From assembly GCA_964612465.1 (NCBI GenBank), contig CAZTDF010000001.1:2660-66659 (forward strand): a stretch of 64,000 nt of DNA, given 5' to 3'. Within the stretch, counting starts at the first letter, position 1; each line of letters starts with the position of its first letter. Shown here in pieces: positions 33,681 through 63,723 of the stretch. The translations under genes and the position numbers were made by a program. The notes below the pieces were generated by a model. It was not told the DNA's origin and searched no databases. It worked only from the letters and a program-made list of their open reading frames with translations. The DNA comes from an uncultured Pirellulales bacterium. GTDB taxonomy: Bacteria; Planctomycetota; Phycisphaerae; Sedimentisphaerales; Anaerobacaceae.

Positions 33681-33777
33681 GCAGCCTAACGATTTCGCTA
33701 TCATCTATGTTGAATGCCCTATTTAATCCATCCCAAACGAAGCCGATGCGATGTCAAGCATCTTCAGTGATAATTCT

Positions 33778-35176: not shown

Positions 35177-35274
35177 TTCATACATTGGTTCGTCCTTGGA
35201 GAGAACGAGCGTGGGCTTGGGAATTCGATAAAAGAACGCACTCTCTCGGCTACGACATCACATTGCTCTGATGG

Positions 35275-38372: not shown

Positions 38373-38636
38373 TTAAAACATCTTTCGTTCAAATCAACAT
38401 ACATTTTCTGTTTTTTCAATCCTGCTAAATCAACCAAAGAAGTAGATATGGTGGAAATAGTAGGTCAAACAAGACGAAGTATCAAGTTATTTCTCCGAAG
38501 ATATGTGAGATGAAAAAATCTTTCAAATGACTCATAAGTAATGTCCTGACAATATCTAAGGGGTCAACAGTACCTTTGTCGAGGTTGCATTTTCTTTAGG
38601 TTGATTGATGTTTTTGTTGAATCTTCTAAAAATAGT

Positions 38637-44923: not shown

Positions 44924-44934
44924 AGGAGCACAAG

Positions 44935-46194: not shown

Positions 46195-46237
46195 GTAATC
46201 TGCGTATAAATTTTATTGTAGGAGGATTATTTCTGCC

Positions 46238-46852
46238 GTGCTAAAAGAAACCATAACTAAAAATAAGATCGAGTTGCGGAAGGATTGTCTGACAACGACT
46301 GAACTTGCAAAACTCTGCGGTGTTTCTCGTTTTACTATTATCAATTGGGTTAACCGAGGCAAAATTAGAACAATGAAAACTGTCGGAGGCCATTGCAGGA
46401 TTCCGGTATCCGAAGCAATCGCTTTTTATGAGACTTTTCATGAAGAAAAGACTGGCTTTATATCTGAATCATTGTGCCATTGCTGGGAATATCCACAAAA
46501 GGCCAAGTGCAATAAAGAGTGTAAAGACTGCCTGCTATATAAAAGCCGGATTAATTACTGCTTCGTGGTGGTACGCGAATTTGGCAAAGAAGTGGTCCAT
46601 TGTAAAGGTGATTGTTTGAATTGTGATTATTTTGAAGAGTTTTTCAGTTCTTACAGCAAAATCGAGCAGCTAAACGAGACGGAAGATGGCGAAAGTAAAA
46701 AAAGAGCCAAAGACAAGAAAAGCTTTCTGTATAGTGTCGTATACGGTGTTGGGCGCGGCGTCCAGGAAGTAAAGGAAAGAGTCACGGATATTAAAGAGGT
46801 GTTTGGAGGCAGAGGCTCTCGAACCAAACAGATGGAAGATAGCGATGTCTAA
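46238..46852 (+). CDS. HTH (excisionase/MerR type) + 8-Cys domain transcription factor; short paralog of 36906..38372
   Basis: TTTELAKLCGVSRFTIINWVNRGKIRTMKTVGGHCRIPVSEAIAFY, then CHCWEYPQKAKCNKECKDCLLYKSRINYCFVVVREFGKEVVHCKGDCLNCDYFEEFF. Collinear with the N-terminal 150 aa of the NTase-HEPN fusion. Confidence 0.75.
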   Translation: MLKETITKNKIELRKDCLTTTELAKLCGVSRFTIINWVNRGKIRTMKTVGGHCRIPVSEAIAFYETFHEEKTGFISESLCHCWEYPQKAKCNKECKDCLLYKSRINYCFVVVREFGKEVVHCKGDCLNCDYFEEFFSSYSKIEQLNETEDGESKKRAKDKKSFLYSVVYGVGRGVQEVKERVTDIKEVFGGRGSRTKQMEDSDV

Positions 46853-48158: not shown

Positions 48159-48159
48159 T

Positions 48160-48453
48160 ATGGCGACGGCAGAAAAAAACCAACTTAGTCTGAATGATAA
48201 GCTTTTTACTGTTCGCAGAAAGCCGCTCAAAGAATCACATATCAGGCTCGATAAACAGTTGTGTAAAAAGTGTCTCAATAGAATATGCACATATATATGC
48301 CCGGCAGAGGTTTATATTTGGAGTGAATCCAAAAACGAAATTGATATAAGATATGAAAACTGTCTCGAATGCGGCGCCTGTCGCGTAGCGTGTGACAGCA
48401 TAGAATGGGCAAATCCTGTATGGGGAACAGGGATTGCATATAAGAACAGTTAA
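48160..48453 (+). CDS. fixX: FixX/EtfX ferredoxin-like protein
   Basis: 97 aa. CKKCLNRICTYICPAEV and CLECGACRVACD. Starts 1 nt after fixC. Confidence 0.85.
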   Translation: MATAEKNQLSLNDKLFTVRRKPLKESHIRLDKQLCKKCLNRICTYICPAEVYIWSESKNEIDIRYENCLECGACRVACDSIEWANPVWGTGIAYKNS

Positions 48454-49412: not shown

Positions 49413-50408
49413 TTGAGGGTTGATAAAAAACAGGTCGGTAAAAGTTCGAAGCGATACTACTGGTTGGCTTTTGTTATCGGCGGGATGACGGCTGCTTTAA
49501 TGGGTTGTTTAGTATATTCGTACGTAACCAAAGGTAACCACAGTCTTTTGAGTAGTGCTGTCGGTAATCCCAAGGCGGATGAAGCGAACGTTCGGACTGA
49601 CCCGACGGAGGAGAAGTCTGTTTCGCCATCCGCTTTTCTCGGAGTAGAGATTATGTCTGTGAATGCGGTTATTGCTGAGCAGTTTGGCCTGTCGAATCCG
49701 TGCGGTGTTCTTGTAAACAGCGTTGTTGACGGCTCACCAGCTCAAGAGTCGGGACTTCGAAGAAGTGATGTTATTCTATCCCTGAATAGCATTGCAGTTG
49801 AGGACGTAAACAGCTTCAGAAGTATTATGAGCACTCTAAATCCCGGTGACAATGTGAAAATTGTGTACATAAGAAACAGGCAAAAAGATACAGTCTATGC
49901 CACATTAGCCGACTCATCCGCCGTTCTGAATGTCGCGAAAGATACAAGTGGTTCTGACTGGGGTGTATTGCTGTCTGTTCTCAATTCGGATTTGCGCAGT
50001 TCGCTGCGTATTCCGGCCAATATCGATGGGATTGTGATTCTGTCGGTAACACCAGGTGGCCTGGCGGATCAGGCTGGTTTGCTGCCCGGCGATGTGATTA
50101 CCGGGATTAACAATACGCCAATTGCAGATATGGGCGACTTCTTCGGTGCATTGTCGTCAGACAAAGACGACAAAGTACTTCTGGATGTTTACAGTCAGGG
50201 CACATTACGTTATGTGGCGTTGGATTCATCCGGTGTCGTCACAGCGGTTGCCAGTACACAGACAAGTCTGCTGGACAGAATACTTTCGGCATTTACTGAC
50301 AACGATAACGTCATACTTACCGAACATACAAATGAAGAGGATGATTATGAAAAGCCGGTATGCAAACGGCTCGAGGAATCAGGGGAACGTTATGAAGATG
50401 AAGACTGA
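49413..50408 (+). CDS. Membrane-anchored double-PDZ protein (the PDZ half of a split HtrA; MamP/MamE-C-terminal-like but without heme motifs)
   Basis: TTG start, TM helix YYWLAFVIGGMTAALMGCLVY. PDZ1: GVLVNSVVDGSPAQESGLRRSDVILSLN. PDZ2: GIVILSVTPGGLADQAGLLPGDVITGIN. No CXXCH. Confidence 0.75.
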   Translation: MRVDKKQVGKSSKRYYWLAFVIGGMTAALMGCLVYSYVTKGNHSLLSSAVGNPKADEANVRTDPTEEKSVSPSAFLGVEIMSVNAVIAEQFGLSNPCGVLVNSVVDGSPAQESGLRRSDVILSLNSIAVEDVNSFRSIMSTLNPGDNVKIVYIRNRQKDTVYATLADSSAVLNVAKDTSGSDWGVLLSVLNSDLRSSLRIPANIDGIVILSVTPGGLADQAGLLPGDVITGINNTPIADMGDFFGALSSDKDDKVLLDVYSQGTLRYVALDSSGVVTAVASTQTSLLDRILSAFTDNDNVILTEHTNEEDDYEKPVCKRLEESGERYEDED

Positions 50409-50423
50409 TAAAAAGGTGTGCAG

Positions 50424-51359
50424 ATGAATTTCAAAAAATGGCTTTCGGAAAATATCTTGTGGGTGCTCGTAGCACTTGTCGTAGTTAACTTTCTCATAGT
50501 GTACTGGGGTACTATCAATCTGGGAATCTATGGCACGCGCAGCTCCCTCCTGAGGTGGGACCTGCTGCAGCGCAAGAAACCGCTCTTACAGGAGCAGACC
50601 ACAGCAGCAAATGTAGAAGTTGATACGCTTACAATGCCGGGTCAGCGTCCGAGTACGGTTGCAAGTAATAATCTTGTATTAACATGTGCGGATGATGATT
50701 TGGCCTCTGCCTTTGCGTCTGTCAGGCCTGCGGTTGTCAATATAACTGCGGACAAGGTAACACAGAGAAGAGGCGGGCCGGCTTTGGCAAGTTCAGTTGC
50801 TTTCGATGACCCGTCCATACAATTCGTTGAAGAGGCATCTCTTGGGTCAGGAATTATCGTTGACCACAGGGGTTATATCGTGACCAATGCTCATGTAGTA
50901 GCCAATGCCACAAGTATCAAGGTTGTAACCTTCAGTTCGGCAAGAGTGGTTTATCCAGCCGTAATCATTCGCAAAGACCTGGAAAATGATATTGCCATTT
51001 TGAAGATCGAACTCGACTCGTCTATGCCTACTGTGATTCTCGGAGACTCCGATATGATAAAAGTGGCTGATATAGTTCTGACCGTAGGCTCGCCTTTCGG
51101 GTTAGAGCAAACCGTTACGGCAGGGATTATAAGCGATGATTCAAGAAACCTTGTCATAGACGGCCAAACCTATGATGATATGATTCAGACAGATGCGGCT
51201 ATTAACAGGGGCAATTCCGGCGGACCGCTTATCAACGTAAAAGGCGAGGTCATAGGCATAAACACAGCCATCTACGCTCCTACCGGCGTATTCACAGGTG
51301 TTGGATTTGCGATTCCTATTAACAAGGTAAAACCAATTGTCAAAGAAACAATCAGGTAA
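50424..51359 (+). CDS. Trypsin-like (HtrA/DegP-type) serine protease domain protein with an intact triad and no PDZ (MamE-N-terminal-like)
   Basis: TM anchor ILWVLVALVVVNFLIVYW. His in YIVTNAHVV, Asp in ENDIAILKI, Ser in NRGNSGGPLIN. GTG 50418 is an alternative start. Confidence 0.85.
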   Translation: MNFKKWLSENILWVLVALVVVNFLIVYWGTINLGIYGTRSSLLRWDLLQRKKPLLQEQTTAANVEVDTLTMPGQRPSTVASNNLVLTCADDDLASAFASVRPAVVNITADKVTQRRGGPALASSVAFDDPSIQFVEEASLGSGIIVDHRGYIVTNAHVVANATSIKVVTFSSARVVYPAVIIRKDLENDIAILKIELDSSMPTVILGDSDMIKVADIVLTVGSPFGLEQTVTAGIISDDSRNLVIDGQTYDDMIQTDAAINRGNSGGPLINVKGEVIGINTAIYAPTGVFTGVGFAIPINKVKPIVKETIR

Positions 51360-51364
51360 AAAAT

Positions 51365-51571
51365 ATGTGGCGAACGATAATAGTTGTAATTGTTGTATTG
51401 ATTATTTTCCTGTTTATTGGCGACAATATGCACACAACACGGGTAAATATGCCTTTCACAAACGGCTTTGAGATAAGAACGGTTTTTCTTTTGGCCTTGA
51501 GCTTTATTGTCGGTTACGGCACGGCGTCCCTCGTAGGTTTTATAAAAAACTCCAAAAATAACAAAAAGTGA
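51365..51571 (+). CDS. Small 2-TM protein with a basic tail (LapA/DUF1049-type; MamL-like by architecture)
   Basis: MWRTIIVVIVVLIIFLFIGDNMHTTRVNMPF...FLLALSFIVGYGTASLVGFIKNSKNNKK. Two TM helices and a Lys-rich C-terminus. Lies between the protease and CDF genes. Confidence 0.55.
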   Translation: MWRTIIVVIVVLIIFLFIGDNMHTTRVNMPFTNGFEIRTVFLLALSFIVGYGTASLVGFIKNSKNNKK

Positions 51572-51582
51572 ATTAATTGCAA

Positions 51583-52455
51583 ATGAGCACAATTAAATTA
51601 TATCCAAATCCTGACGATTCAGTTCAACCATTTCTGGCAGGGCTGCTGGCTAATCTGGCGATTGCCATTCTGAAGTTTGGAATAGCCTTACTGGGCGGCA
51701 GCAGGCTGGTTTTGATGGACGGCCTTTTCTCCTTTATGGCGGCAGTGGCTTTTTTGATTCCATGGCAAGCACAGGTTATAGAAAAAAAGCCTCACGATGA
51801 GAGATACCCGTATGGCTTAGGCAAGGTACTGTTTATAAGTATGGCAGTGATCGGCTTTCTTGGTCTGGTTATTTCTGTTCATATGATTTACTACAGCCTG
51901 GTGGTCATGGCTGGACTACAAATGCATGGTTTATACACCCTGGCGATAATGGTCACGATTATATCTGTAATAACCAACGAGGTTCTTTATCGATATCTTG
52001 CGGAGAAAACCAAAAGTTGCTCAAGTACAGTGTTGGCCATGTCCGGGCGTTACAATCGCATCGGTGCGTGGATTTCGTCTTTTGTCCTGTTATTTTTAAT
52101 TCTTTCTTATCTCGGTGGTGCGTATCTTGAGAGGATTGGTGTCGCAATCATTTCAATCGTTGTGTTTTTTATCAGCCTTCGAATGCTTTTTGTGGGCTTT
52201 AGCGGGATTATGGACAAGGTTCCATCACCCAAAATCCTGGAGCGAATAAGGGTATGCACGCAAAAGGTAAGCGAGGAAAAAGAGATTATAAACGTAAAGG
52301 CCAGGTACGTTGGAACACTGCTGCATATTGATATGTGGATAAGAGTAGATGATGAGCTCAGTATGGAGCAGGCCGATAGAATTGCCCGCCGCGTCAAAGT
52401 ACAGTTAATGGAGAAAATTCCTTTCGCAAGAGAAGTGAATGTTATTATCGCATGA
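51583..52455 (+). CDS. Cation diffusion facilitator (CDF) family protein with a degenerate transport site (MamM-like position)
   Basis: CDF landmarks KKPHDERYPYGLGKV and a C-terminal domain (NVKARYVGTLLHIDMWIRVD). TM2 reads LVLMDGLFSFMAAV and TM5 reads LAMSGRYNRIGAW, so the usual HxxxD/[HD]xxxD pairs are missing. TTG 51577 is an alternative start. Confidence 0.7.
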   Translation: MSTIKLYPNPDDSVQPFLAGLLANLAIAILKFGIALLGGSRLVLMDGLFSFMAAVAFLIPWQAQVIEKKPHDERYPYGLGKVLFISMAVIGFLGLVISVHMIYYSLVVMAGLQMHGLYTLAIMVTIISVITNEVLYRYLAEKTKSCSSTVLAMSGRYNRIGAWISSFVLLFLILSYLGGAYLERIGVAIISIVVFFISLRMLFVGFSGIMDKVPSPKILERIRVCTQKVSEEKEIINVKARYVGTLLHIDMWIRVDDELSMEQADRIARRVKVQLMEKIPFAREVNVIIA

Positions 52456-52934
52456 TAACGACTAAGAAAAAAGTTTTTATTTTAGTAGTTGTTTTGGCTT
52501 TAGCTGTCTTATTAATAGCTGGAAGATTGGTAGTATGCGCCAGGACTGCAGGGGTGGCCCAATCTGCTGACAGTTTTGTTTTTAACTTGCCCAATGAGGC
52601 CGGTTTCTACAATATTACCGTCGTTGAATTGAAGACCAGGATAGACAACAAATCCGATAAGAATTTTATAGTCGTCGATATCAGAGATAACGCATCTTAT
52701 GCCCAGGGTCATATACCCGGGGCGATAAACATACCTTTAAATGAACTGGGCTACCGCGTATTCAGTCTGGATAAAACAAAGGACATAATCGTGTATTGCT
52801 TTACCGGCGTAACAAGCCAGGTTGCATGCCAGATACTTGTAAATGCCGGGTTTAAAGATGTGTATAACGTGATAGGCGGAATAAAAGCGTGGAATTATGC
52901 TGTTGAAACAAGCGATGGCAGAGTAGATATTTAA
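52452..52934 (+). CDS. Membrane-anchored rhodanese-domain protein (sulfurtransferase-like)
   Basis: N-terminal TM helix VFILVVVLALAVLLIA. Rhodanese strings VVDIRDNASYAQGHIPGAINIP and active-site loop IIVYCFTGVTSQVA. ATGA overlap with the preceding CDF gene. Confidence 0.8.
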   Translation: MITTKKKVFILVVVLALAVLLIAGRLVVCARTAGVAQSADSFVFNLPNEAGFYNITVVELKTRIDNKSDKNFIVVDIRDNASYAQGHIPGAINIPLNELGYRVFSLDKTKDIIVYCFTGVTSQVACQILVNAGFKDVYNVIGGIKAWNYAVETSDGRVDI

Positions 52935-52970: not shown

Positions 52971-53168
52971 ATGTTGCACATTGTTGTAGGAATCATCGCA
53001 ATCGTGATTGGACTGTGGGGGATAATGGGCAACTGGTATATGTTCAAAGATATACTGGTTACTATCGTGCCGCTGGCAGTGCTTTTATTTGGAATAGTGG
53101 CAGTATTAGCCGGTATTCGCAAAATGAAAGCAAACTTGGCTGCCAAAGAGAAAAGTGAGGAGGCATAA
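52971..53168 (+). CDS. Small 2-TM protein, MamI-like
   Basis: Strong RBS AAAGGAG 5 nt upstream. MLHIVVGIIAIVIGLWGIMGNWYMFKDILVTIVPLAVLLFGIVAVLAGIRKMK.... The length, hairpin topology and IGLWG...W...VP...G pattern match my recollection of MamI. Sits directly upstream of the MamA-like gene. Confidence 0.55.
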   Translation: MLHIVVGIIAIVIGLWGIMGNWYMFKDILVTIVPLAVLLFGIVAVLAGIRKMKANLAAKEKSEEA

Positions 53169-54762: not shown

Positions 54763-55653
54763 GTGGCGATAGTGTGTAAACAATGTAATTGGTGTGTCAA
54801 GCATGTTGGCGGTTTGAATCTGTTTGGCAATATTCTTCTGCTTGCCATAAAGCTTTTAGGTGGAATATTCGGCAGAAGCCAGGCATTGATTGCCGATGCC
54901 TTGCATTCTCTAGGTGATGTTGTTGTGGCACTTATGTTACTGGTTAGCTTGAAGGTATCTTCTGTTCCACCGGATGAGGATCATCACTGGGGCCATGGCA
55001 ATATTGAGTATATCACCTCGGTCATAATAGGTGTATTGCTTATCTGTGCGGCCATTATGATTTCCATATCCGCGATATTTACTATCGTCACAGGAAGGAT
55101 GGATGATCCGGGCATTCTGGCGGTATGGGCGGCTTTGATATCTATTATTGTCAACGGAATTTTATGCAAACAGGGTATTTGTGTCGGCGAACAAATAAAT
55201 TCGCCCGTGATGATAGCAAACGCCCGGGAGAAAAGGTCAGATGCTTACACTTCTCTTGCCGCTCTGATAGGTGTTTTCGGTGCAAAGATGGGGTTTATAT
55301 TCTTAGATCCTGTTGCTGCTATTGTTGTTGGTTTTATGATTGCCAAATTCGGATTAGATACGCTTCTTGAAGGGGTCAAAGGCATATCCGACCGGTCTTT
55401 TGACAAAGAGACCCTTGCCAGCGTGAAAAGACTGGTCTTAAAGAAGGAAAGTATAAAAGATATAGGCCGATTAAGAGCCAGGCAAATCGGCCAGAAAAAT
55501 TGGATCGATCTTGAAGCGATTTTCGCTCCTGAAGTGAAAGTCTCGGAAGTAAGAACTACAATCGCAAGTCTTAGAAAAGACATAATGGAGCGATTCGAGG
55601 GGATAGCTGACGTGGTGATCATATCCCGTGCGTCAAAGCCGGAACTAAAGTAA
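54763..55653 (+). CDS. mamB: CDF transporter, MamB-like, copy 1
   Basis: GTG start. N-terminal CKQCNWC. TM2 ALIADALHSLGDVV. Loop PPDEDHHWGHGNIEYITS. TM5 CVGEQINSPVMIANAREKRSDAYTS. These are collinear with the remembered MamB strings ALVADSLHSGADVV, KPADERYPFGYGNIQYISS and CVGNENNSPAIIANAWDNRSDAISS. Confidence 0.75.
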   Translation: MAIVCKQCNWCVKHVGGLNLFGNILLLAIKLLGGIFGRSQALIADALHSLGDVVVALMLLVSLKVSSVPPDEDHHWGHGNIEYITSVIIGVLLICAAIMISISAIFTIVTGRMDDPGILAVWAALISIIVNGILCKQGICVGEQINSPVMIANAREKRSDAYTSLAALIGVFGAKMGFIFLDPVAAIVVGFMIAKFGLDTLLEGVKGISDRSFDKETLASVKRLVLKKESIKDIGRLRARQIGQKNWIDLEAIFAPEVKVSEVRTTIASLRKDIMERFEGIADVVIISRASKPELK

Positions 55654-55692
55654 ATACAGTTATCATACTTATCACATAACGAATTTAAAACT

Positions 55693-56595
55693 ATGGCAGT
55701 TGTTTGTAAAAGATGTTACTGGTGTGCCAAGCATGTCGGAGGGCTAAACTTTTGGGGCAATCTCGCCCTTCTGGTCGTAAAGCTGTTGGGCGGCATATTC
55801 GGCAGAAGCCAGGCTCTAATCGCCGATGCTGTTCATTCTCTAAGCGACGTTATCGTATCGATATTGCTTATAATCAGCTTAAAGGTCTCTTCGACGCCGC
55901 CGGACGAAGATCATCCATGGGGCCATGGTAATGTAGAATTTATCGTATCAGCCATATTTGGGGTGTTGCTTGTTTGTGCGGCTGTGGCTATTACCGCAGT
56001 GTCGATTACCTCGATTATTCAGGGAAATGTATACAATACAAGTATTTTGGCTGTGTGGGCGGCGGTCATATCCGTTGTCGCTAATGATATAATGTTCAGA
56101 CATTCCTTTTGTGTAGGCCAGAAGGTGAATTCTCCTGCAATGATAGCAAATGCCTTGGAGAACAGGGCCGATGTGTGGTCGTCGCTGGCAGTATTAGCAG
56201 GTGTTTTTGGTGCAAGGATTGGGTTTCCGGTTCTTGACCCCATTGCTGCCGTTATTGTAGGTTTTATGATTGCTAAAAATGGGATAGAAACATTGGTTTT
56301 AGGAATTAAAGGCATGACTGACCGGTCTTTTGACAAGGGAATGCTTGCCCAGGTAAAAAAAATAGTCCTGGAAGAAGTCGCCATAAAAGATGTAAGCAGG
56401 CTGCGTTCCAGACAGATCGGACAAAAAAACTGGATAGACATTGAGGCAATGTTTGATCCACAGATAAAAGTTTCAGAGGTAAAAAAGATAATCGAGAGAA
56501 TTAAGAAAAACATAATGGAAAAATTCGAAAAGATCGGGGATGTGGTAATTGTGTCCCGTGTATCAGAACCCCAGTTAAAGTTAAAGGAAATATAA
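55693..56595 (+). CDS. mamB: CDF transporter, MamB-like, copy 2 (tandem paralog)
   Basis: N-terminal CKRCYWC. ALIADAVHSLSDVI. PPDEDHPWGHGNVEFIVS. CVGQKVNSPAMIANALENRADVWSS. Roughly two-thirds identical to copy 1 by eye. Confidence 0.75.
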   Translation: MAVVCKRCYWCAKHVGGLNFWGNLALLVVKLLGGIFGRSQALIADAVHSLSDVIVSILLIISLKVSSTPPDEDHPWGHGNVEFIVSAIFGVLLVCAAVAITAVSITSIIQGNVYNTSILAVWAAVISVVANDIMFRHSFCVGQKVNSPAMIANALENRADVWSSLAVLAGVFGARIGFPVLDPIAAVIVGFMIAKNGIETLVLGIKGMTDRSFDKGMLAQVKKIVLEEVAIKDVSRLRSRQIGQKNWIDIEAMFDPQIKVSEVKKIIERIKKNIMEKFEKIGDVVIVSRVSEPQLKLKEI

Positions 56596-56597: not shown

Positions 56598-59500
56598 ATG
56601 ATATGGGCAAAGAATAAGGATAAAAAGAAAAAGTTAAAAACAATAACTGATGACATGACGCCCAGAGAAAAAGAACAGGTGCTGGAATATAAGAAGCGGG
56701 TAATCAGGCGATGGGCCATAGTGGTAGGGCTTCTGGCTCTTGCAACCTTTGGCTTCCTTTTTATGACGCTGCTTGACCATGTGATTAAAGGTACCCCTGA
56801 CGGTGGGCTTGAGATAAACTACAATAAGCTGGATGCAAAGCTCGCCTGGCTCGGTGCTGAGATTCGGGATTTAGACGCTACTATCAGTAGTGCACTTGGT
56901 TTAACCTCAAGCGAGGGGGTCCTCGTAAACAATGTAACATCAGGTTCACCGGCAGATCAGGTGGGTTTGCAGAGAGGCGACGTTATTATTTCCCTTGATG
57001 GAAGCAAGGTAGTCGATACCTTACAGATACAGGACCGGCTTCGGAAACTTAAACCTGGAGATACTGTCAAGCTTGTTTTAGATAAAGTAAATGGCGGCAA
57101 GAAAAATGTTTATGTTACACTTGGCGTCAAACCGGACGATGATGCTGCAACAACTGATACAAAGATTAAAAAAGTAGCAGGAACCACCGATACTGCTGTT
57201 AATCCGGTATTGTCCACGCATTGGGGAATATCGGTGTCGCCGCTGACAGATGATGCAAGGGTTGCATTCAAAATACCCGAGAAAGTTCAAGGCGTTCTTG
57301 TTGTTGCAGTCGTGCGGGGCAGTCTTGCCGATTCGCAGGGCATTAAGGTTGGAGATGTTATTGTAAGTATCAACCAGGTTTCTACGCCTAACCTGCAGGT
57401 TTTTTATCAGGCTCTCAAAGATGTTGAGAGTGTTTTGATGGATGTTTATTCATCTTCTGACGATAAAAGATTCTTTGTAACGTTTCCTGACGAAGGTGAT
57501 TCACCGCCACAAGTTGTGATGATGAGTTTTGATGAAAAAGTGGCCGAAACCCATCGTATTATCATTCCTTCTGACATGGCAGGCTTGAACGGTCAGGTTT
57601 ATTCCCGGTTTGCATCTGCTCCATATTTTATTCTGTATGATTTCAATACAAATCAGCCGACCGTAATCACTAATCCGTATGCATTACAGGTTCGCGGTGC
57701 GGGGATACCCTTAGCGCAAATGCTGATAGAACAAAAAATTGATGCCGTAATAGTAGGCGGAATAGGTCCGCAGGTATTTGATATCTTTTATCTTGCCAAA
57801 GTTAAAATCTATGGACCAGTTACAGGCAGTGTGCGAACCGCGATAACTAATTATCAGTTAGGCAAATTGCCTGAATTAAAGGAAGCTAACCTTGCCGGAT
57901 ACGGCAATTCATCGACAGCCACAATTCCGACAGGCGGCTCACCTAGGACAGAGACGGATGATACCGCTGATGATGAAGAAAGTGATGGTCTGTCCGGTCA
58001 GCCTTCGGTTATTCCACCTAAAGGCAAACCCCTCGAACTTACTGCCCAGGGCGATGCCCGTGCAAGCAGGCCGGAAACCTGCGTCTGCCCCAGATGTGGC
58101 ACAGAAGTAACTCATCCGGCAAGTACTGCCTGTGCTGATATGGTATGTCCCATTTGCGGTTCTCAGCTTATGACAGCATCGCCTGGAACTGATTCAATTA
58201 CCGGCACGGATATGACAACCCAGCTTCCAGCGACACAGATACCAACCCAGTTGAGACCTATTTCCTTAGCGGCAGGCAGTACAGTAGCACCGACAAGCCC
58301 ACCCAGCAGAATAGCAGCGATACCAACAGCCGCCAATCTATGGGCAATAAGCAATCAGCCCTCAACTACACCGCCTACAACAACACCAGTACAACAAACG
58401 GCGGGTTCTTCAACAACGGTTTGTATATGTCCTCTTGATGGCACAACAGTGACCCATCCGGTTGGTATTCCATGTTCTGCTCTTCAGTGTCCAGTTTGCG
58501 GCGGCAGAATGGTAAGTGCCAGCAGTGCAATCATTGATGGCAGCCAGATATCCAAAACTGCCGGGGTGGTAGTTGGCGGCAAACCCGATGATGTCCCACC
58601 GGTTCAGCAGGTATTTTACATACTTCCTGTTGGCGGCAAACCGGATGACATACCGCCGTCAATGGGTGGCTCGGCACAAACCGTTTCACTTGTTACGATT
58701 GGCGGCAAACCGGACGATGTACCGCCTGTTCAGCAGACATTCTACTTACTGCCAGTAGCCGGCGGACCTCCTGAGGGTATGGGCAGCGCTCCGACTGATA
58801 CCGGCAGTGCTCCGGCTGATGTGGGAGGCTCATCGCAGAGTGCTCGTTCGACAACATGTATATGTCCTGTGGATGGCACAACGGTAACCCATCCGATAGG
58901 TGTTCCCTGTTCGCAGCTTAGCTGTCCTATATGTGGTTCTCGTATGGTTAATGCCGCCCCCGGCGGTGATACTGCCGGCGGTGCAATTCAAACAGGCGGC
59001 AAACCCGATGATGTTCCACCGGTTCAGCAGGCATTTTACTTACTTCCTGTCGGCGGCAAACCGGATGACGTACCGCCTGTCCAGCAGGCCTTTTTCTTAG
59101 TGCCGGTATCGAGCCAGCCTGATGGTGTGCCGCCTTTAGGCCAGAGCACACAGTCGGTAACTCAAGCTCAAAGGACGTCGCTTGTTACGATAGCCGGCGG
59201 ACCTCCGGAGGGTATGGGTATGGGAGGGGCAGCTGATACAGGCACTGCCGTAGATGGGCCGGCACAGGGTGGTGGTCAGTCTGGCTCCGGTGCGGCCCAG
59301 ACTGGTCGCTCAGATTTATGTGTGTGCCCAATGTGTGGCGTAACCGTAACGCATCCAATATCTGTTCCGTGTTCCTCACTTACATGTCCCGTCTGCGGCT
59401 CTCGATTGGTTAACCAAACCCCTGGAGGCACAAGCGGCAATACAGCCGGCAGCAGTTTAGTACCGACAGCGGCAATTACAGTTGCTGCGACATCGAACAT

Positions 59501-59963
59501 AGTTCATGTAGCGGGGAGTTCTAAAAAATTGGTTATCCCATCCACAGGCAGAACTCTTAAATCTAATATTGCGCCGTTACTCGACGATGCTCGTTATTTC
59601 TTAATGTTCGGATTAGGAACATATGAAGCGGTACCCAATCCATATTACAGGGACAAAAGGGCAAGTGGAGATGAAATCGGTCAGTTCATAGTGGCTGAAG
59701 GCGGTTCGATTGTTATTTGCAATAACGTAAGTGCCACAGCACTCAAAGCACTCAAGGACCTGAAAGTCAAGGTATACACCGGCTTTGTGGGCACAGTTCA
59801 GCAGGCTCTTGACATATACAATGATGGCAGGATCAAGGATTCATCGACAGGGAGTGTTCTTGATGATGAAGAAGAACATGGCGGCGGTGGGCCGCCTTCA
59901 TCAAAAACCAAGTCTTCTAAAGAAAAAGACAAAGACAAAGATAATGACACGGAGGTATTTTAG
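56598..59963 (+). CDS. 1121-aa membrane-anchored multidomain protein: TM - PDZ - PDZ - NifX/NifB-type (Nitro_FeMo-Co) domain - four Cys/His knuckle modules interleaved with GGKPDDVPP repeats - second NifX-type domain - acidic/basic tail
   Basis: TM helix WAIVVGLLALATFGFLFMTLL. PDZ: GVLVNNVTSGSPADQVGLQRGDVIISLD and GVLVVAVVRGSLADSQGIKVGDVIVSIN. NifX-like 1: FASAPYFILYDFNTNQPTVITNPY...GAGIPLAQMLIEQKIDAVIVGGIGPQVFDIFYLAKVKIYGPVTGSVRTAITNY. NifX-like 2: LDDARYFLMFGLGTYEAVPNPYY...GDEIGQFIVAEGGSIVICNNVSATALKALKDLKVKVYTGFVGTVQQALDIY. Confidence 0.8.
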   Translation: MIWAKNKDKKKKLKTITDDMTPREKEQVLEYKKRVIRRWAIVVGLLALATFGFLFMTLLDHVIKGTPDGGLEINYNKLDAKLAWLGAEIRDLDATISSALGLTSSEGVLVNNVTSGSPADQVGLQRGDVIISLDGSKVVDTLQIQDRLRKLKPGDTVKLVLDKVNGGKKNVYVTLGVKPDDDAATTDTKIKKVAGTTDTAVNPVLSTHWGISVSPLTDDARVAFKIPEKVQGVLVVAVVRGSLADSQGIKVGDVIVSINQVSTPNLQVFYQALKDVESVLMDVYSSSDDKRFFVTFPDEGDSPPQVVMMSFDEKVAETHRIIIPSDMAGLNGQVYSRFASAPYFILYDFNTNQPTVITNPYALQVRGAGIPLAQMLIEQKIDAVIVGGIGPQVFDIFYLAKVKIYGPVTGSVRTAITNYQLGKLPELKEANLAGYGNSSTATIPTGGSPRTETDDTADDEESDGLSGQPSVIPPKGKPLELTAQGDARASRPETCVCPRCGTEVTHPASTACADMVCPICGSQLMTASPGTDSITGTDMTTQLPATQIPTQLRPISLAAGSTVAPTSPPSRIAAIPTAANLWAISNQPSTTPPTTTPVQQTAGSSTTVCICPLDGTTVTHPVGIPCSALQCPVCGGRMVSASSAIIDGSQISKTAGVVVGGKPDDVPPVQQVFYILPVGGKPDDIPPSMGGSAQTVSLVTIGGKPDDVPPVQQTFYLLPVAGGPPEGMGSAPTDTGSAPADVGGSSQSARSTTCICPVDGTTVTHPIGVPCSQLSCPICGSRMVNAAPGGDTAGGAIQTGGKPDDVPPVQQAFYLLPVGGKPDDVPPVQQAFFLVPVSSQPDGVPPLGQSTQSVTQAQRTSLVTIAGGPPEGMGMGGAADTGTAVDGPAQGGGQSGSGAAQTGRSDLCVCPMCGVTVTHPISVPCSSLTCPVCGSRLVNQTPGGTSGNTAGSSLVPTAAITVAATSNIVHVAGSSKKLVIPSTGRTLKSNIAPLLDDARYFLMFGLGTYEAVPNPYYRDKRASGDEIGQFIVAEGGSIVICNNVSATALKALKDLKVKVYTGFVGTVQQALDIYNDGRIKDSSTGSVLDDEEEHGGGGPPSSKTKSSKEKDKDKDNDTEVF
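58575..59109 (+). repeat. In-frame tandem/interspersed coding repeats encoding GGKPDD[VI]PP[VS]QQ.F[YF][LI][LV]PV (six copies)
   Basis: The DNA unit ggcggcaaacc(c/g)ga(t/c)ga(t/c)gt(a/c/t)cc(a/g)cc(g/t)gt(t/c)cagcag recurs at about 58575, 58632, 58701, 58995, 59052 and, degenerate, at 59110. Read directly. Confidence 0.8.
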
Positions 59964-60871
59964 TGACGGAAAGTAAGCTCGAAAAACTTATAAAAACAAA
60001 GAAACACTCAAAAGCTAATGTGATTATGATCATAATAGTTGTCGGATTTATTATTCTCATAGTGTGCCAATCGGCTTTTATGGGTTTCACAATGAAGGAA
60101 CAAACCAGAACGACTACTGCCCCTCAGGATGGTTCTATCCGAAGCAGCAACATTGCACTGACGGCTTCGAATATACAGCTTGTTGCGTGCACGGATGACG
60201 ACCTTACAGATGCGGTTTCTGCAGTAAAGAGAGCAGTTGTGAATATAGACGTAGCCCCGGCTGATGTTGGTTCTGCGAATAGAAGGGGTGAGCCTGCTTT
60301 GAGTTTTGATATGCCCTCGACAGCAGCCCTGCAAACAAACGAAGAAACTCTTGGTTCAGGTGTTATCGTTGATGCACGTGGGTATATTCTTACCTGCTAC
60401 CACTTAATAAAAGATTGCCCGAACGTTAATGTGAGTGTTTTTAGTTCTGTGCGTCAGATATACAAAGCCCAGGTTGTTGATGTCGATATTACAAATGACC
60501 TTGCAATCCTGAAGATAGAATCGGACAGGCCTTTGCCGGCAGTAAAACTGGCAAACTCCGATCTGGTCAAGATAACCGATGCGATTCTTGCTATCGGTTC
60601 GCCGTTTGGTTTCGAGCACACAGTAACCGCTGGGATAGTCAGCGATAACAAGCGAAGTATCGTCATTGGTAATACTGTTTACAAAGATATGTTACAGACG
60701 GATGCGGCAATAAACCGCGGTAGTGCCGGCGGTGCTTTGATAAATGGTGCCAGCGAAATCATTGGTATTAATACCGCCATCGCGTCTCCATCGGGATATT
60801 TTTCAGGCGTCAGTTTTGCCATACCAATAAACAAGGCCAGGCCGCTGTTGCTGAAGGCAATTGATGGCTGA
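59963..60871 (+). CDS. Trypsin-like (HtrA-fold) pseudoprotease: His and Asp retained, nucleophile Ser replaced by Ala (MamO-like logic)
   Basis: TM anchor VIMIIIVVGFIILIVCQSAF. YILTCYHLI (His) and TNDLAILKI (Asp). DAAINRGSAGGALIN aligns column for column with DAAINRGNSGGPLIN of the active paralog at 50424. GTG start overlaps the upstream stop by 1 nt. Confidence 0.8.
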   Translation: MTESKLEKLIKTKKHSKANVIMIIIVVGFIILIVCQSAFMGFTMKEQTRTTTAPQDGSIRSSNIALTASNIQLVACTDDDLTDAVSAVKRAVVNIDVAPADVGSANRRGEPALSFDMPSTAALQTNEETLGSGVIVDARGYILTCYHLIKDCPNVNVSVFSSVRQIYKAQVVDVDITNDLAILKIESDRPLPAVKLANSDLVKITDAILAIGSPFGFEHTVTAGIVSDNKRSIVIGNTVYKDMLQTDAAINRGSAGGALINGASEIIGINTAIASPSGYFSGVSFAIPINKARPLLLKAIDG

Positions 60872-60882: not shown

Positions 60883-62070
60883 ATGAAAAAGTTTATACAA
60901 TGGATAGCAGCGAAAGCCATTAAAGATCACCAGAGCGTTAATGATCTGAAGGTCAGGTCACGTTATGGAGCACTTGAAGGCTGGACAAGTATTGTTATCA
61001 ATTTGCTGCTGTTTATTGTTAAGATAGTCCTTGGTCTTTCGATAAGAAGCGTATCTTTGATTGCTGACGCTGTTCATACATTGGCCGATTCCGGCACTTC
61101 AGCGGTAGTTATAATCGGATTTAAAATAGCACGAAAGCCGTCGGATAAAGAACACCCGTTTGGCCATGGGAGAATGGAATCAGTAGCGGCCCTGGTCGTT
61201 TCGGTGTTACTATTTATGGCGGGTTTGGAACTATTGGAAAAGTCGATTCATGCCATTATCAAACCGCAAAGCTCTACAGCTCCGACCGGTGTGATTTTAG
61301 TAATCATCGCAACTATTGTGATAAAGGAACTGATGGCGAGGTTTTCCTATCAGCTTGGCGAGATTATTGATTCGCAGGCTCTTAAGGCAGACGCCCTTCA
61401 TCATCGAAGTGATGTAATCGCTACCGCTCTGGTAGTCGTTGCACTTATCGCAACGCGATTCGGTTATAATAATATTGATGGTATAATGGGCGTTGGTGTT
61501 TCTCTGATTATTTTTTACTCAGCCTTCTTGATTGCCAAAGAAGCGGTCAATCCTTTGCTGGGCGAGGCGCCTTCAAAAGAAAAGATTAAGGAAATAGAAA
61601 AACTGGCAATGACTCACGAAGGAGTTTTGGGCGTTCACGACATAATCTTTCACAAATACGGCCAAACGAGTGTGATCTCTTTGCATATAGAGGTATCGGA
61701 TAAGGATTCTGCTTTCAAGCTTCATGAGCTTGCAGAGCAAGTGGAAGATACAATCACTCAGAAGATTCCTGGAATGGCGGTTGTCCATGTCGATCCGTTA
61801 AACAAGGACCACCCTCAGTATGAGCAAATCACCATGGCTATAAAAGATATTATCTCTGAAGACATAAGAGTAAGTGCTTTTCATGATTTAAGAATCGTCG
61901 GTTGTCGTGCGAATAGATGTAACGTGGTTTTCGACATTGTTTTGGAGCAAGACGCTGATGAGCAGGAAACTCACGACATGATCCATTCTATAGCCGAGAA
62001 GTTCAAAACGAAGTTCCCTGAAATGAAGACAGTTATTAAAGCTGAACCGAAATACGCGTATAATATTTAG
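60883..62070 (+). CDS. CDF transporter with a canonical HxxxD/HxxxD site and an extended (duplicated) C-terminal domain
   Basis: TM2 LIADAVHTLADSG. Loop KPSDKEHPFGHGRMES. TM5 LKADALHHRSDVIAT. 395 aa with two successive CTD-like segments (GVHDIIFHKYGQTSVISLHIEV and AFHDLRIVGCRANRCNVVFDIVL). Confidence 0.85.
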   Translation: MKKFIQWIAAKAIKDHQSVNDLKVRSRYGALEGWTSIVINLLLFIVKIVLGLSIRSVSLIADAVHTLADSGTSAVVIIGFKIARKPSDKEHPFGHGRMESVAALVVSVLLFMAGLELLEKSIHAIIKPQSSTAPTGVILVIIATIVIKELMARFSYQLGEIIDSQALKADALHHRSDVIATALVVVALIATRFGYNNIDGIMGVGVSLIIFYSAFLIAKEAVNPLLGEAPSKEKIKEIEKLAMTHEGVLGVHDIIFHKYGQTSVISLHIEVSDKDSAFKLHELAEQVEDTITQKIPGMAVVHVDPLNKDHPQYEQITMAIKDIISEDIRVSAFHDLRIVGCRANRCNVVFDIVLEQDADEQETHDMIHSIAEKFKTKFPEMKTVIKAEPKYAYNI

Positions 62071-62080: not shown

Positions 62081-62425
62081 ATGAATCTAATAAAGAAGAA
62101 ACTGGCCGATTTCTTAAACGAGATGAGTAACAAGGGTATAGATAAGATGGATCCGAAGAGTTCTTGCGCTAAATCTTTAAAGGATTTAGATAGAGAGACG
62201 CTCCTAAAAGAGGATATCGAGCGAATTTGCGATGAGATGCGAGTCTTGGAGGCAGGAAAAATCTTGAGATTATCCAACAAACTCATGTGGTCAGGCACAG
62301 CAAATAAGGATGAATTTAGAAAAGAAATAAAATCGATGGCTTCTAAAGTATTGAAACGTGTGGAAAAGAAAGGCGGAAAACTAAATCTTCCACGACAATG
62401 TCGAGATTTGCTGATGAATTTGTAA
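62081..62425 (+). CDS. Hypothetical soluble helical protein (114 aa)
   Basis: ORF 10 nt after the CDF gene. Its 3' end overlaps the EcsC-like gene by 28 nt. No recognisable motif. Confidence 0.45.
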   Translation: MNLIKKKLADFLNEMSNKGIDKMDPKSSCAKSLKDLDRETLLKEDIERICDEMRVLEAGKILRLSNKLMWSGTANKDEFRKEIKSMASKVLKRVEKKGGKLNLPRQCRDLLMNL

Positions 62426-63279
62426 GAGGATTACCAGTGAAGCTAAGTGAATATGAGATCAAAAGCTTGCGAGAAATAAAAAAATGGGAGAAGGACAAAC
62501 ATAAGGGCTTTCATAAGAAAGTCCTCGATGTTGTTTCCAGACCAGTGGATTATGTCCTCGGTAAGATTGGGCAAAGAAAACTCAAAATTTTTGAAGATGC
62601 TGTTGAGAAAACCGTCAATAATCTGCTAACTACTTCAACCTCTACAGTTGATGCCGAAGATCTGATAAAAAGGGCTCATGCTCATGGTGTGATGATAAAA
62701 GACCTGTCGGAACTGAAAGATTGTGATTTGGGATTGTTAGACAATTGTAACCGAAAACATATAAAATTCCACGAGAAGGCGAGTGCTATACAAGGTGCGG
62801 TAGGTGGTCTTGGGGGCATAGTGGTAGCAACAGTGGATCTAACAGCACTTTTGGTCCAGGATTTTCATATGATTCAGGAAATCGCATTTTGCTATGGTTT
62901 CGATCCGAACGATATTATCGAGAAAGAGATAATACTAAGAATAATCGAAATCGGTGTTGGCGGCTCAGAGATAAAATTCAAGGCATTACAGGAAATAGAC
63001 GCCTTAAAAAAAATAAAGACCAAAGTAAGTAAGAAAAAAACAACAAAAAAAGGTGCTTCGGTTCTGGGTTCAAAAGCCTTGGAGGAATACATCGAACAAC
63101 TGACCACAGCTTTGATCGTTCGCCTGGTGCCGCGTGCCCTGCCTGTAGTATCAATGGCGGTAAGTGCTCATTCGAATCACGAAATAATAGAGCATTCGGG
63201 AAAAGCGGCTTTTATGGTTTATCGAAGGCGATTCATTGAAAGGAAAAAGAAAACAATAGAACGACGATATAAGAAATAG
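62398..63279 (+). CDS. EcsC-family protein
   Basis: 293 aa. The central GAVGGLGGIVVATVDLTALLVQDFHMIQEIAFCYGFDPND and the C-terminal LVPRALPVVSMAVSAHSNHEIIEHSGKAAFMVYRRRF are typical of EcsC-family proteins as I recall them. Confidence 0.65.
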   Translation: MSRFADEFVRGLPVKLSEYEIKSLREIKKWEKDKHKGFHKKVLDVVSRPVDYVLGKIGQRKLKIFEDAVEKTVNNLLTTSTSTVDAEDLIKRAHAHGVMIKDLSELKDCDLGLLDNCNRKHIKFHEKASAIQGAVGGLGGIVVATVDLTALLVQDFHMIQEIAFCYGFDPNDIIEKEIILRIIEIGVGGSEIKFKALQEIDALKKIKTKVSKKKTTKKGASVLGSKALEEYIEQLTTALIVRLVPRALPVVSMAVSAHSNHEIIEHSGKAAFMVYRRRFIERKKKTIERRYKK

Positions 63280-63303
63280 ACCAAATAGAAAGGGGAATTA
63301 GCA

Positions 63304-63723
63304 ATGGATGTAACTGATTATTACTGTCCGACAACCGTAACAAGTACGCTTGGTTACTCCATGGGTCGGGCCGTCGGAGCTGCGAGGATAATAACAGTCG
63401 ATGCCATCAATCCTGTTAAAGCCGGTGCCGCCGTAGCTATTTTGTGGGGAAGTATAGCTGCTCTGGTAAATGTAAAAAAATATAAGCAGGGCAAAATAAC
63501 AAAACGGGATGCTGTTGTTGATACAGGAGGCGAAGCGGTAGGCCTGGGACTGGCTGCCGGCCTTGGCTTATTGGCAAGTAATGCAGTAAGAGCTTCGGTC
63601 CTGGTTGCCTCTACCACTTCGCTTGTTCCGTTTACCGTAGGTGTCGCAGTAACATCAGGTATGAAGGTGATGTGGAATTGCAGCACAAAGAAACATCTCA
63701 AATGTCAACCAAAACCATCGTAA
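63304..63723 (+). CDS. Small 2-3 TM protein with a MamC/Mms13-like inter-helix loop
   Basis: AGAAVAILWGSIAALVNVKKYKQGKITKRDAVVDTGGEAVGLGLAAGLGLLASNAV compared with the remembered MamC [55 protein letters not shown]. Shared pattern K..IT...A..DTG.E.VG.GLA. Confidence 0.5.
   Translation: MDVTDYYCPTTVTSTLGYSMGRAVGAARIITVDAINPVKAGAAVAILWGSIAALVNVKKYKQGKITKRDAVVDTGGEAVGLGLAAGLGLLASNAVRASVLVASTTSLVPFTVGVAVTSGMKVMWNCSTKKHLKCQPKPS

Follow-up and report, generated by a model that had tools for sequence, protein, structure and literature searches.

A membrane-anchored PDZ and NifX-like protein with four Cys/His modules in a Planctomycetota magnetosome gene cluster, a candidate scaffold for metal or Fe-S handling

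Magnetosome formation has, to our knowledge, been dissected almost only in magnetite-forming Proteobacteria, in which haem-based magnetochrome proteins control iron redox, and we know of no genetic system for the deep-branching, putatively greigite-forming lineages. The locus described here, a stretch of 64,000 nucleotides from an uncultured Pirellulales bacterium (contig CAZTDF010000001.1 of assembly GCA_964612465.1, positions 2,660 to 66,659 of the forward strand; the whole stretch is called the window below), raises the question of what a protein of 1121 amino acids (aa) encoded in it, the target protein, may be doing in such a lineage. A prediction made from the sequence alone (the original prediction) had read it as a fusion of PDZ domains, NifX-like domains and Cys/His knuckles that handles metal or Fe-S clusters inside a compartment. 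We find the protein to be real, conserved and membrane-anchored, and its gene to lie in a magnetosome gene cluster of Planctomycetota. Its architecture very probably puts it with the magnetosome proteins FmpA and FmpB, and metal or Fe-S handling in the compartment remains the best hypothesis for its function.

The predicted domains (two PDZ domains of HtrA/MamE type, two PF02579 domains, four modules resembling zinc ribbons or rubredoxin, and Pro-rich repeats) were borne out by Pfam, NCBIfam and motif reading. Both PF02579 (Nitro_FeMo-Co; E = 1e-26, 93.5 bits against a gathering cut-off of 26.3) and the PDZ models (PDZ, PDZ_2 and PDZ_6; E ~1e-17 to 5e-18) match in two stretches each, far above threshold. 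Residues 81-285 correspond to the PDZ1-PDZ2 half of DegP/HtrA (positions 234-425 of 434 in the NCBIfam model TIGR02037, E = 6.7e-32), with weaker NCBIfam alignments to the PDZ parts of MamE and MamP. Pfam gave no trypsin match to the protein, and motif reading of the whole open reading frame (ORF) counted zero CXXCH motifs. The labels 'MamP' and 'MamE' were accordingly rejected: there is neither a magnetochrome nor a protease domain, and the scores fall far under the equivalog cut-offs (63 against 800 for MamE, NF040960, and 43 against 300 for MamP, NF040965, both in the PDZ region only). The DegP-type PDZ tandem itself is present, but its full TIGR02037 score is 111 against 416.

PDZ2 is directly followed by a conserved junction, TLPDEGDSPPQVV, at aa 296-317, after which local hidden Markov models (HMMs) place the two NifX-like domains at aa ~318-428 and ~975-1082. 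The inter-module region holds five GGKPDD[VI]PP(VQQxFYLLPV) repeats and two GGPPEGMG motifs. In the DNA, repeat units reach 94% identity (an 83-nt unit within 58995..59218 has this identity to the copy at 58575) and modules 61-73%, with a supra-unit of ~435 nt. GC content climbs to 0.52 at 58-60 kb, because the linkers are rich in Gly, Pro, Ala and Thr.

The 1121-aa frame is open throughout 56598..59963 on the + strand, in agreement with the coordinates from which we started, and an identical protein (P0001) occurs in JGI and Logan data. We collected ~65 full-length homologues of 1040-1206 aa, with identity down to ~50%. A 98%-identical copy was found on an independent 39.7-kb contig (L012) of a metagenome-assembled genome (MAG), and the domain order is kept across subfamilies. 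In a wider circle, ~25 module-bearing clusters have architectures of the form TM-PDZ-PDZ-(NifX)0-3-(module)1-5-NifX (TM, transmembrane segment), up to 1516 aa long. Family members occur unremarked in MAGs published as magnetotactic (L015 and L019), and the public name of one of the family proteins (P0038) is merely 'PDZ domain-containing protein'. The Planctomycetota single-amplified genome (SAG) AM-311-N14 carries two family copies on separate contigs (L016 and L024, 66% and 64% identical to the window protein), which suggests two magnetosome clusters or a duplicated segment.

From 49.4 kb on, all genes of the window lie on the + strand. Their order is a 331-aa TM-PDZ-PDZ protein, a trypsin-like protein (MamE-Nter-like, GNSGGPL), a 68-aa TM ORF, a cation diffusion facilitator (CDF), an anchored rhodanese, a 65-aa MamI-like ORF, a TPR protein (MamA-like), a LemA protein (MamQ-like), two further CDFs, the target gene, a second trypsin-like protein (GSAGGAL) and a last CDF. 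The target occupies a fixed slot (MamQ - MamB - target - trypsin-like), and the same gene order recurs in nine related loci (L001, L002, L012, L015, L017, L023, L031, L032 and L033). L001, a 112-kb Planctomycetota SAG contig, has a Pfam MamI match, and FeoAB, Rrf2 and a PDZ-H+-pyrophosphatase fusion follow its cluster; in L002 a remote homologue of the target stands beside an actin-like MamK-type gene. L015 and L019 are the Planctomycetota MAG_11118_pl_115 and MAG_18080_pl_157; Uzun et al. reported them as Phycisphaerae that bear magnetosome genes, with clusters that fall among putative greigite clusters (PMC7449369). For the 'mamAB-like' operon of greigite type in Deltaproteobacteria the order E-Cter, E-Nter, MB-like, I, A, Q, B, T*, O has been described (PMC9145555); the order in the window matches it, which places the target in the MamT*/MamP-like slot. 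The gene is tightly coupled to both neighbours (2 nt on the upstream side, -1 nt on the downstream side): the stop of the upstream CDF gene is separated from its ATG by 2 nt, its TAG shares 1 nt with the GTG start of the downstream gene, and each start is preceded by a sequence resembling a ribosome-binding site (AAGGAA and GGAGG, respectively).

The downstream partner, the neighbouring pseudoprotease of the original prediction, is a MamO-like protein that retains the His and Asp of the catalytic triad, and the nucleophile Ser is replaced by Ala (GSAGGAL for GNSGGPL). The replacement holds throughout the close family (window, L012, L015 and L017), and GNSGGPL is kept in the remote subfamilies. 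The 331-aa PDZ protein nearby, of 'MamE-Cter' type, has 34% identity (E = 1e-35) to residues 1-301 of the target, so that the cluster holds two split HtrA/MamE-like pairs. One is made of the PDZ protein and an active protease (gene at 50418-51359, membrane-anchored, GNSGGPL intact), the other of the target and the pseudoprotease (56598..60871). With the trypsin-like genes thus separate, the reading of the N-terminal third as the PDZ half of a split HtrA/MamE holds. CDF genes flank the target (a CDF neighbour had also been noted); the window has four such MamB/MamM-like paralogues within 11 kb (51577-52455, 54763-55653, 55693-56595 and 60883-62070), the fourth being longer (395 aa), with two matched ZT_dimer stretches in Pfam. 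The membrane-anchored rhodanese is kept at the same position in five related loci (L001, L012, L015, L031 and L033), and a homologous rhodanese domain is fused into two target homologues, between module 3 and NifX in P0069 and ahead of the modules in P0097. We found no mention of a rhodanese together with a magnetosome gene cluster in the searchable literature.

The two NifX-like domains are 23% identical to one another (E = 1e-11); the second is common to all subfamilies, and the first is missing from the remote group P0067-P0070. AlphaFold2 (AF2) models both with high confidence scores (pLDDT, the predicted local distance difference test, ~90 for the second and 86-91 for the first), and a Foldseek search with the second confirmed the PF02579 alpha/beta fold. 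The nearest structure is TM1290 (E = 1.7e-9, 33% identity, target TM-score 0.80), accompanied by TM1816 (0.84), PH0822, the Desulfovibrio gigas orange protein ORP (0.81), MTH1175 and MJ0327. NifX in the NifEN complex (9ian_F, 0.52) and NafY (1p90, 0.60) are more distant, at E ~4e-3. No nif genes were found in the window or in the related loci. Of the idea that these are FeMo-co or Fe-S carrier domains, the fold therefore stands, and the nitrogenase-type FeMo-co carrier, too specific a reading, was rejected for the absence of nif context and the ranking of NifX and NafY behind the stand-alone clade. The NifX-like domains of the target are best placed in the ORP/TM1290 clade of the PF02579 fold and appear not to be nitrogenase FeMo-co carriers. 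One experiment bears on this clade: the 'Di-Nase' domain of MrpORP, another non-nitrogenase PF02579 protein, was reported to bind an Fe-S cluster in vitro (PMC6345978). The NCBIfam MrpORP model, which has a cut-off of 450 bits, gives the target only 26. Profile searching with the second (C-terminal) NifX-like domain, aimed at FmpA and FmpB, retrieved short stand-alone NifX proteins only; fusions of DUF5320 with NifX do exist.

All four Cys modules of the target have equal spacing and follow C-x-C-P-x-[C/D]-G-x2-V-T-H-P-x4-C-x4-C-P-x-C-G, and the invariant pattern in its general form is C-x-C-P-x-[C/D]-G-x5-H-x5-C-x4-C-P-x-C-G. We counted 238 modules of equal spacing in 61 aligned family proteins. 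The regular expression used for the count fixed the Cys and His positions, so that the information lies in the free positions alone: at position 6, 157 modules have Cys and 81 have Asp (no other residue occurs), P4, V10, P24 and G27 are near-invariant, and module 2 is nearly always of the Asp form. The modules are the best-conserved segments of the protein (mean column identity 0.82-0.88, no indels); the linker columns reach 0.55-0.67, with up to 319 inserted alignment columns, and both module copy number and GGKPDD-type repeats vary between homologues. No Pfam or NCBIfam model reached its threshold for the module, either in the target or in stand-alone homologues. PDB sequence and fold searches retrieved generic CPxCG knuckles only (RpoP/Rpo12, LysW and rubredoxin), and in the AF2 models it forms two beta-hairpins (pLDDT 74-80 in a short construct, 60-77 in the full-length model). 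From the sequence we read the module as a zinc-ribbon core (C2, C3/D, C6 and C7) with three extra invariant ligands (C1, His and C5). The modules thus look like putative metal sites, since the spacing is invariant, position 6 admits only Cys or Asp, their conservation is the highest in the protein and the knuckles are of CPxCG type.

The module is widespread. An exhaustive HMMER profile search of 1.84 billion cluster representatives found it in at least 1274 clusters (50% identity) at E ≤ 1e-3, 49 of them at E ≤ 1e-10; a word-index search for homologues, run with the module alignment of 42 aa, gave no candidates. Many of the hits are proteins of 56-110 aa with one C-terminal module; among 87 small-protein modules each of the seven ligands is conserved 83-87 times (top hits, and as such profile-biased), and a Gly-rich leader, MP(R/G)xDGTGP...GRG, is present in 11 of the 83 small module proteins examined. 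Membership in DUF5320 was considered and rejected: PF17253 has no match at E ≤ 1 in the target or the small module proteins, and the only likeness, seen by eye, is that of the Gly-rich MP(G/R)xDGTGP leader to the DUF5320 protein of L003. Literature searches on DUF5320 brought up nothing of relevance. The 76 longer module representatives carry PF02579 more often than any other partner (28), with PDZ next (22), and small NifX-module fusions also occur (P0199 and P0205). Outside magnetosome clusters, NifX and module genes also stand side by side as separate genes, on contigs that bear the labels Zixibacteria, Clostridiaceae, Parcubacteria, Omnitrophota, Bacteroidales, Rikenellaceae and Eubacteriales. 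In four of seven loci not chosen for NifX similarity, a NifX-like gene lies within 2 kb of the module gene. The operon of one 76-aa module protein (P0156) runs DUF134, DUF5320, NifX-like, module, two MinD/CbiA ATPases with 4Fe-4S, Zn ribbon, AF_2379, NifX-like, oxidoreductase and Mrp/NBP35. An Omnitrophota MAG (L049, 10485-12011) has a 75-aa module gene followed by a CDF transporter with a C-terminal NifX-like fusion, the locus not being part of a magnetosome cluster; its triad of CDF, NifX-like domain and module is the one that stands side by side in the magnetosome cluster. Overall, the association of module and NifX is strong, albeit not universal and measured at few loci. The module is also found on phage-like contigs (L007, an ENA contig) and, in two copies, in a long protein that lacks PDZ and NifX (P0125); phage capsid and protease Pfam families were each matched in one long module protein.

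Which side of the membrane the array faces bears directly on its possible role. The target has a single N-terminal hydrophobic segment (core aa 41-59), which AF2 models as part of a continuous helix of aa 22-63, with five Lys/Arg on the N-side (net +3) and one on the C-side (net -2). The same build is seen in the rhodanese, the pseudoprotease and the 331-aa PDZ protein: each of the four has one N-terminal hydrophobic segment with 3-6 Lys/Arg on its N-flank and 1-2 on its C-flank. This predicts an N-in orientation for all four, whose soluble parts would share the extracytoplasmic (lumenal) side. PDZ domains of HtrA/MamE type are periplasmic or lumenal, and the predicted topology agrees with this as well as with the signal peptide and haem c motifs of FmpB. 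Signal peptides are also present on a few small module proteins (P0115, P0123 and P0131). A Tat signal, for which an RR ahead of the target anchor was considered, is unlikely, as the RR is not conserved. The full-length AF2 model has a predicted TM-score (pTM) of 0.24, with folded domains at pLDDT 60-91 and linkers under 35, and 526 of the 1121 residues (~47%), essentially all of them linkers, fall below 50; no structure is predicted by AF2 in the GGKPDD repeats. In these models the protein is a flexible, multivalent string of beads.

We propose that the single N-terminal anchor would hold the target in the magnetosome or cytoplasmic membrane with the residues past ~60 in the lumen, and that the PDZ tandem may dock it to the pseudoprotease, whose gene overlaps that of the target, and/or to further proteins of the magnetosome. 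A flexible array of NifX-like domains and modules on disordered Pro/Gly/Thr-rich linkers would make up the C-terminal 800 residues. Such an array could capture iron from the adjoining MamB/M-type CDF transporters, receive sulfur (sulfane sulfur) from the co-anchored rhodanese, hold both as mononuclear Fe or small Fe-S species on the modules or NifX-like domains, and concentrate or pass on these species at the nucleation site of the crystal, probably greigite. A role in iron and sulfide handling is suggested by the module-NifX linkage beyond magnetosome clusters and by the rhodanese and CDF neighbours and fusions.

The array may also stand in for the magnetochrome haem modules of MamP, MamE, MamT and FmpB. 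Three observations point this way: two MamE-like active proteases (P0139 and P0144) carry degenerate modules N-terminal to trypsin-PDZ-PDZ, a further protein (P0134) combines a sub-threshold magnetochrome match with three degenerate modules, and no CxxCH ORF or magnetochrome was found in the magnetosome-cluster part of the window. We lean, with modest confidence, towards this composite model of a lumenal multivalent Fe/Fe-S scaffold that works with the CDFs, the rhodanese and the pseudoprotease. A bolder extension is speculative and, in our estimate, rather doubtful. It holds that the module and the ORP/TM1290-type NifX-like domain make up a widespread, unrecognised two-part metal-sulfide (Fe-S) carrier system of anaerobes. 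In Planctomycetota-type clusters this system would have come to be exported, with its parts repeated along a disordered tether and joined by lumenal rhodanese and CDFs, and would assemble or template greigite Fe-S precursors outside the cytoplasm.

Several points weigh against the scaffold model. The modules could be purely structural Zn sites, as metal, cluster and redox state are not readable from a sequence. Neither NifX-like domain has a conserved Cys or His ligand in the family alignment; the first lacks Cys altogether, and Cys1041 of the second is Thr in the remote subfamily. The AF2 models show no docking of modules to NifX-like domains, and a NifX neighbour of the stand-alone module gene is absent in L007 (phage-like), L009 and L047. 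The topology comes solely from the positive-inside rule and analogy, there is no Tat motif by which a pre-loaded protein would be exported, and we know of no well-established precedent for Fe-S assembly outside the cytoplasm. The grouping with FmpA/FmpB is one by architecture and gene-cluster position only. Finally, the greigite assignment of the related clusters is itself only 'putative' (PMC7449369).

The alternative that survives best is an iron-redox relay, in which each module would bind one rubredoxin-like Fe (or another redox centre) and set the lumenal Fe(II)/Fe(III) ratio in place of magnetochrome haems, much as MamP sets this ratio for magnetite, the NifX-like domains being accessory. 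The CPxCG knuckles do match rubredoxin, the modules of P0139 and P0144 sit at the magnetochrome positions of proteobacterial homologues, the cluster part of the window encodes no magnetochrome, and modules co-occur with the magnetochrome-like motif of P0134 and with a single C-terminal CxxCH in P0121, P0133 and P0137. However, a rubredoxin site requires fewer than seven conserved ligands, the strong and recurring ties to NifX-like domains, rhodanese and CDFs point to metal or sulfide trafficking, and the P0134 match is below threshold. P0133 and P0137 were rejected as fusions of modules with a c-type cytochrome, having no Pfam cytochrome match beyond the single CxxCH. We regard the relay as unlikely.

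Somewhat less likely again is a structural or regulatory scaffold with no metal chemistry, in which the modules would be structural Zn ribbons that maintain the fold of small domains and the NifX-like domains would be protein-binding. The PDZ domains and the GGKPDDVPP...FYLLPV peptides would then regulate the MamE-like protease and the pseudoprotease, or act as their substrates or activating ligands, as in PDZ activation of HtrA/DegS type. This would suit the DegP-like PDZ tandem, the translational coupling to the trypsin-like pseudoprotease, the likeness of the module to Zn ribbons in sequence and fold, and the disordered linkers with their repeated hydrophobic peptide motifs of variable copy number. 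On the other hand, it leaves unexplained the extra invariant Cys, His and Cys, the Cys/Asp alternation, the NifX-module pairing in cytoplasmic, non-magnetosome operons with Fe-S ATPases, and the rhodanese and CDF fusions; moreover, the GGKPDD repeats are missing from several full-length homologues and are thus not essential.

A third possibility, an N-out/C-in anchor with a cytoplasm-facing array that supplies clusters or iron to the CDFs or to cytoplasmic magnetosome proteins, appears quite improbable. Most stand-alone module and NifX-like homologues do lack a signal peptide and lie in operons with cytoplasmic MinD/Mrp-type Fe-S ATPases, and the NifX-like domain of the Omnitrophota fusion follows the CDF C-terminal domain, which is cytoplasmic. 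Against this stand the charge bias across the anchor, which is clearly N-in, the periplasmic or lumenal location of HtrA/MamE-type PDZ tandems, the union of signal peptide and c-type haem motifs with PDZ and NifX in FmpB, and the signal peptides of the three small module proteins named above. The chance that the ORF is an artefact, several genes fused by assembly (a caveat of the original prediction) or by gene calling, is negligible: only the unusual length and the GC jump, itself explained by linker composition, would favour it, and the open frame, the identical protein elsewhere, the ~65 full-length homologues, the L012 copy and the constant domain order refute it.

Table 1. Coordinates of the target gene, its parts and its partner genes (positions in the window unless a locus is named)
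Feature	Position	Strand	Basis
Target gene, 1121 aa, TM-PDZ-PDZ-NifX-like-(Cys module)x4-NifX-like	56598..59963	+	ATG start, ORF list, Pfam, NCBIfam
Lys/Arg-rich N-terminus (aa 1-37) and single membrane anchor (aa ~38-60)	56598..56777	+	Hydrophobic segment, flanking charges, AF2 helix
PDZ1, aa ~82-178	56841..57131	+	Pfam PDZ_2 at aa 85-171; pLDDT 71-84
PDZ2, aa ~205-295	57210..57482	+	Pfam PDZ at aa 208-268
NifX-like domain 1, aa ~318-428, GGIGPQ type	57549..57881	+	PF02579 best stretch aa 331-420; pLDDT 86-91
First G-x-P-x-x-I-P-P motif, GQPSVIPPKGKP, aa 467-480, ahead of module 1	57996..58037	+	Near-invariant in alignment
Cys module 1, aa 495-521, 6 Cys + His	58080..58160	+	Motif reading, alignment
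Cys module 2, aa 609-635, 5 Cys + Asp + His	58422..58502	+	Motif reading, alignment
GGKPDD[VI]PP(VQQxFYLLPV) repeats x3 and GGPPEGMG, aa 660-729	58575..58783	+	Predicted disordered, pLDDT 23-34
Cys module 3, aa 754-780, 5 Cys + Asp + His	58857..58937	+	Motif reading, alignment
GGKPDDVPP repeats x2, one degenerate copy and second GGPPEGMG, aa 800-874	58995..59218	+	Motif reading
Cys module 4, aa 908-934, 6 Cys + His	59319..59399	+	Two beta-hairpins, pLDDT 74-80
NifX-like domain 2, aa ~975-1082, 'VICNN' type	59520..59843	+	Pfam, AF2, Foldseek
Membrane-anchored trypsin-like pseudoprotease, GTG start, GSAGGAL	59963..60871	+	Sequence reading
331-aa TM-PDZ-PDZ protein and active-site-intact trypsin-like protease (paralogous split HtrA/MamE pair)	49413..51359	+	
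Two MamB/MamM-like CDF genes directly upstream of the target	54763..56595	+	Pfam
Membrane-anchored rhodanese, 160 aa, active-site loop CFTGVTS	52452..52934	+	Anchor analysis
PDZ-H+-pyrophosphatase fusion	L001 16849-19737; L012 21311-23365 (cut); L015 19582-22476; also L017, L031		

Beyond the genes already described, GC content falls from ~0.55 to ~0.44 near 32-34 kb of the window, and this drop, together with DDE transposase/integrase genes at 33980-35176 (+) and 35275-36354 (-), marks an apparent island edge (32000-38400); a HEPN/nucleotidyltransferase gene lies in the same region (36906-38372, -). The low-GC island also holds, a short way ahead of the mam-like genes, a FixABCX-like set at 44135-48453 (ETF beta, ETF alpha with N-terminal 2x4Fe-4S, FAD oxidoreductase and ferredoxin), split by a MerR/HTH gene. 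A 707-aa protein at 41605-43728, whose N-terminal half is a long coiled coil and whose C-terminal part has HEAT repeats, is reminiscent, by domain type alone, of the coiled-coil/HEAT Mad proteins, which organise magnetosome chains in deep-branching magnetotactic bacteria. Two small ORFs with hydrophobic stretches (51365-51571, 68 aa, and 52971-53168, 65 aa) are easily lost to ORF-length cut-offs; the latter stands at the position of the Pfam MamI match in L001. An EcsC-family protein and a small HupE/UreJ-like membrane protein (62398-63723) follow the last CDF gene. In related magnetosome clusters a gene ~11 kb downstream of the target homologue, a distance past the window end, encodes a conserved protein of unusual architecture, two N-terminal PDZ domains fused to a membrane H+-pyrophosphatase (P0072, 946-964 aa), which could energise the compartment or set its pH.

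Of all this, the PDZ and NifX kind of magnetosome protein (FmpA/FmpB) and the place of PF02579 domains in Fe-S biology are already known. We found no description in the searchable literature, Pfam or NCBIfam of the seven-ligand module as a family, of its systematic pairing with NifX, of its repeated occurrence along a disordered tether instead of magnetochromes, or of the rhodanese link. The Planctomycetota clusters appear to keep the FmpA/FmpB-type PDZ-NifX architecture and to swap the haem modules for Cys/His module arrays beside an anchored sulfurtransferase, and the target thus offers a concrete experimental entry both to greigite-type biomineralisation and to the function of the stand-alone NifX-like clade. 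A definition of the module-NifX pair would annotate many small 'hypothetical' proteins of anaerobes and provide function-linked context for the stand-alone clade of PF02579. The two-part carrier reading, if true, would be the first molecular handle on greigite magnetosome making.

Among known systems, the module is closest to the zinc ribbons and rubredoxin-like knuckles of RpoP/Rpo12, LysW and rubredoxin, with which it has in common two CPxCG knuckles on beta-hairpins. It differs from them by its three added invariant ligands (a Cys at -2, the His and a Cys), by the Cys/Asp swap at one knuckle position, by falling below all curated thresholds and by its specific association with NifX-like domains. 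For the NifX-like domains the counterparts are the stand-alone PF02579 proteins (TM1290, TM1816, PH0822, MTH1175, ORP and the Di-Nase domain of MrpORP), which have the same fold (TM-score 0.72-0.84, at most 33% identity) and, like the target, are non-nitrogenase proteins; the Desulfovibrio ORP holds a metal-sulfide cluster. The P0156 operon, with its MinD/CbiA-Fer4 ATPases, NifX-like genes and Mrp/NBP35, resembles the orp-type gene sets. While the stand-alone proteins are small, soluble and cytoplasmic, the domain of the target is duplicated, membrane-tethered, predicted to be extracytoplasmic, and fused to PDZ domains and Cys modules.

With MamP, MamE and MamT of magnetite-forming Proteobacteria the target would share the plan of a lumenal, anchored PDZ protein with small repeated metal or redox modules, encoded together with HtrA-like proteases and CDF transporters. 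Unlike them, it has no CXXCH magnetochrome and no trypsin domain, and its repeated module is Cys/His-based and not haem-based. The closest relatives by architecture are FmpA and FmpB of Desulfovibrio magneticus RS-1. The original prediction knew of no described protein with such a combination; at the level of PDZ plus NifX this does not hold, since such fusions are known from both (PMC4287615, PMC12748827). FmpB was reported as a fusion of magnetochrome, PDZ and NifX/NifB (PMC4287615), and a 2025 study describes both FmpA (with a TM segment) and FmpB (with a signal peptide) as proteins of serine-protease/PDZ type with dinitrogenase Fe-Mo domains, enriched on early-stage magnetosomes (PMC12748827). 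In the same study the alleles fmpA Q418* and an fmpB frameshift, which delete the Fe-Mo domains, led to fewer, smaller, misshapen and mislocalised crystals (PMC12748827). FmpA corresponds to DMR_41090 ('MamE-Cter', formerly 'MamP') and FmpB to DMR_41100 ('MamP-like', formerly 'MamT'). Like the target, they are encoded in magnetosome clusters, begin with an anchor or signal peptide, carry PDZ domain(s) and have a NifX-like domain at the C-terminal end, and genes of the fmpA/fmpB type adjoin mamB and split mamE/mamO in deltaproteobacterial clusters, a slot equal to that of the target. The target departs from both in its two NifX-like domains, its four Cys modules, its disordered Pro/Gly-rich linker of ~500 residues, its two- to threefold length and its origin in a Planctomycetota cluster of putative greigite type, and from FmpB in lacking the one magnetochrome which the latter has. 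FmpA and FmpB are the only members of this kind with genetics and proteomics, and it is in their company that the target protein, by its architecture, very probably finds its place among magnetosome proteins.

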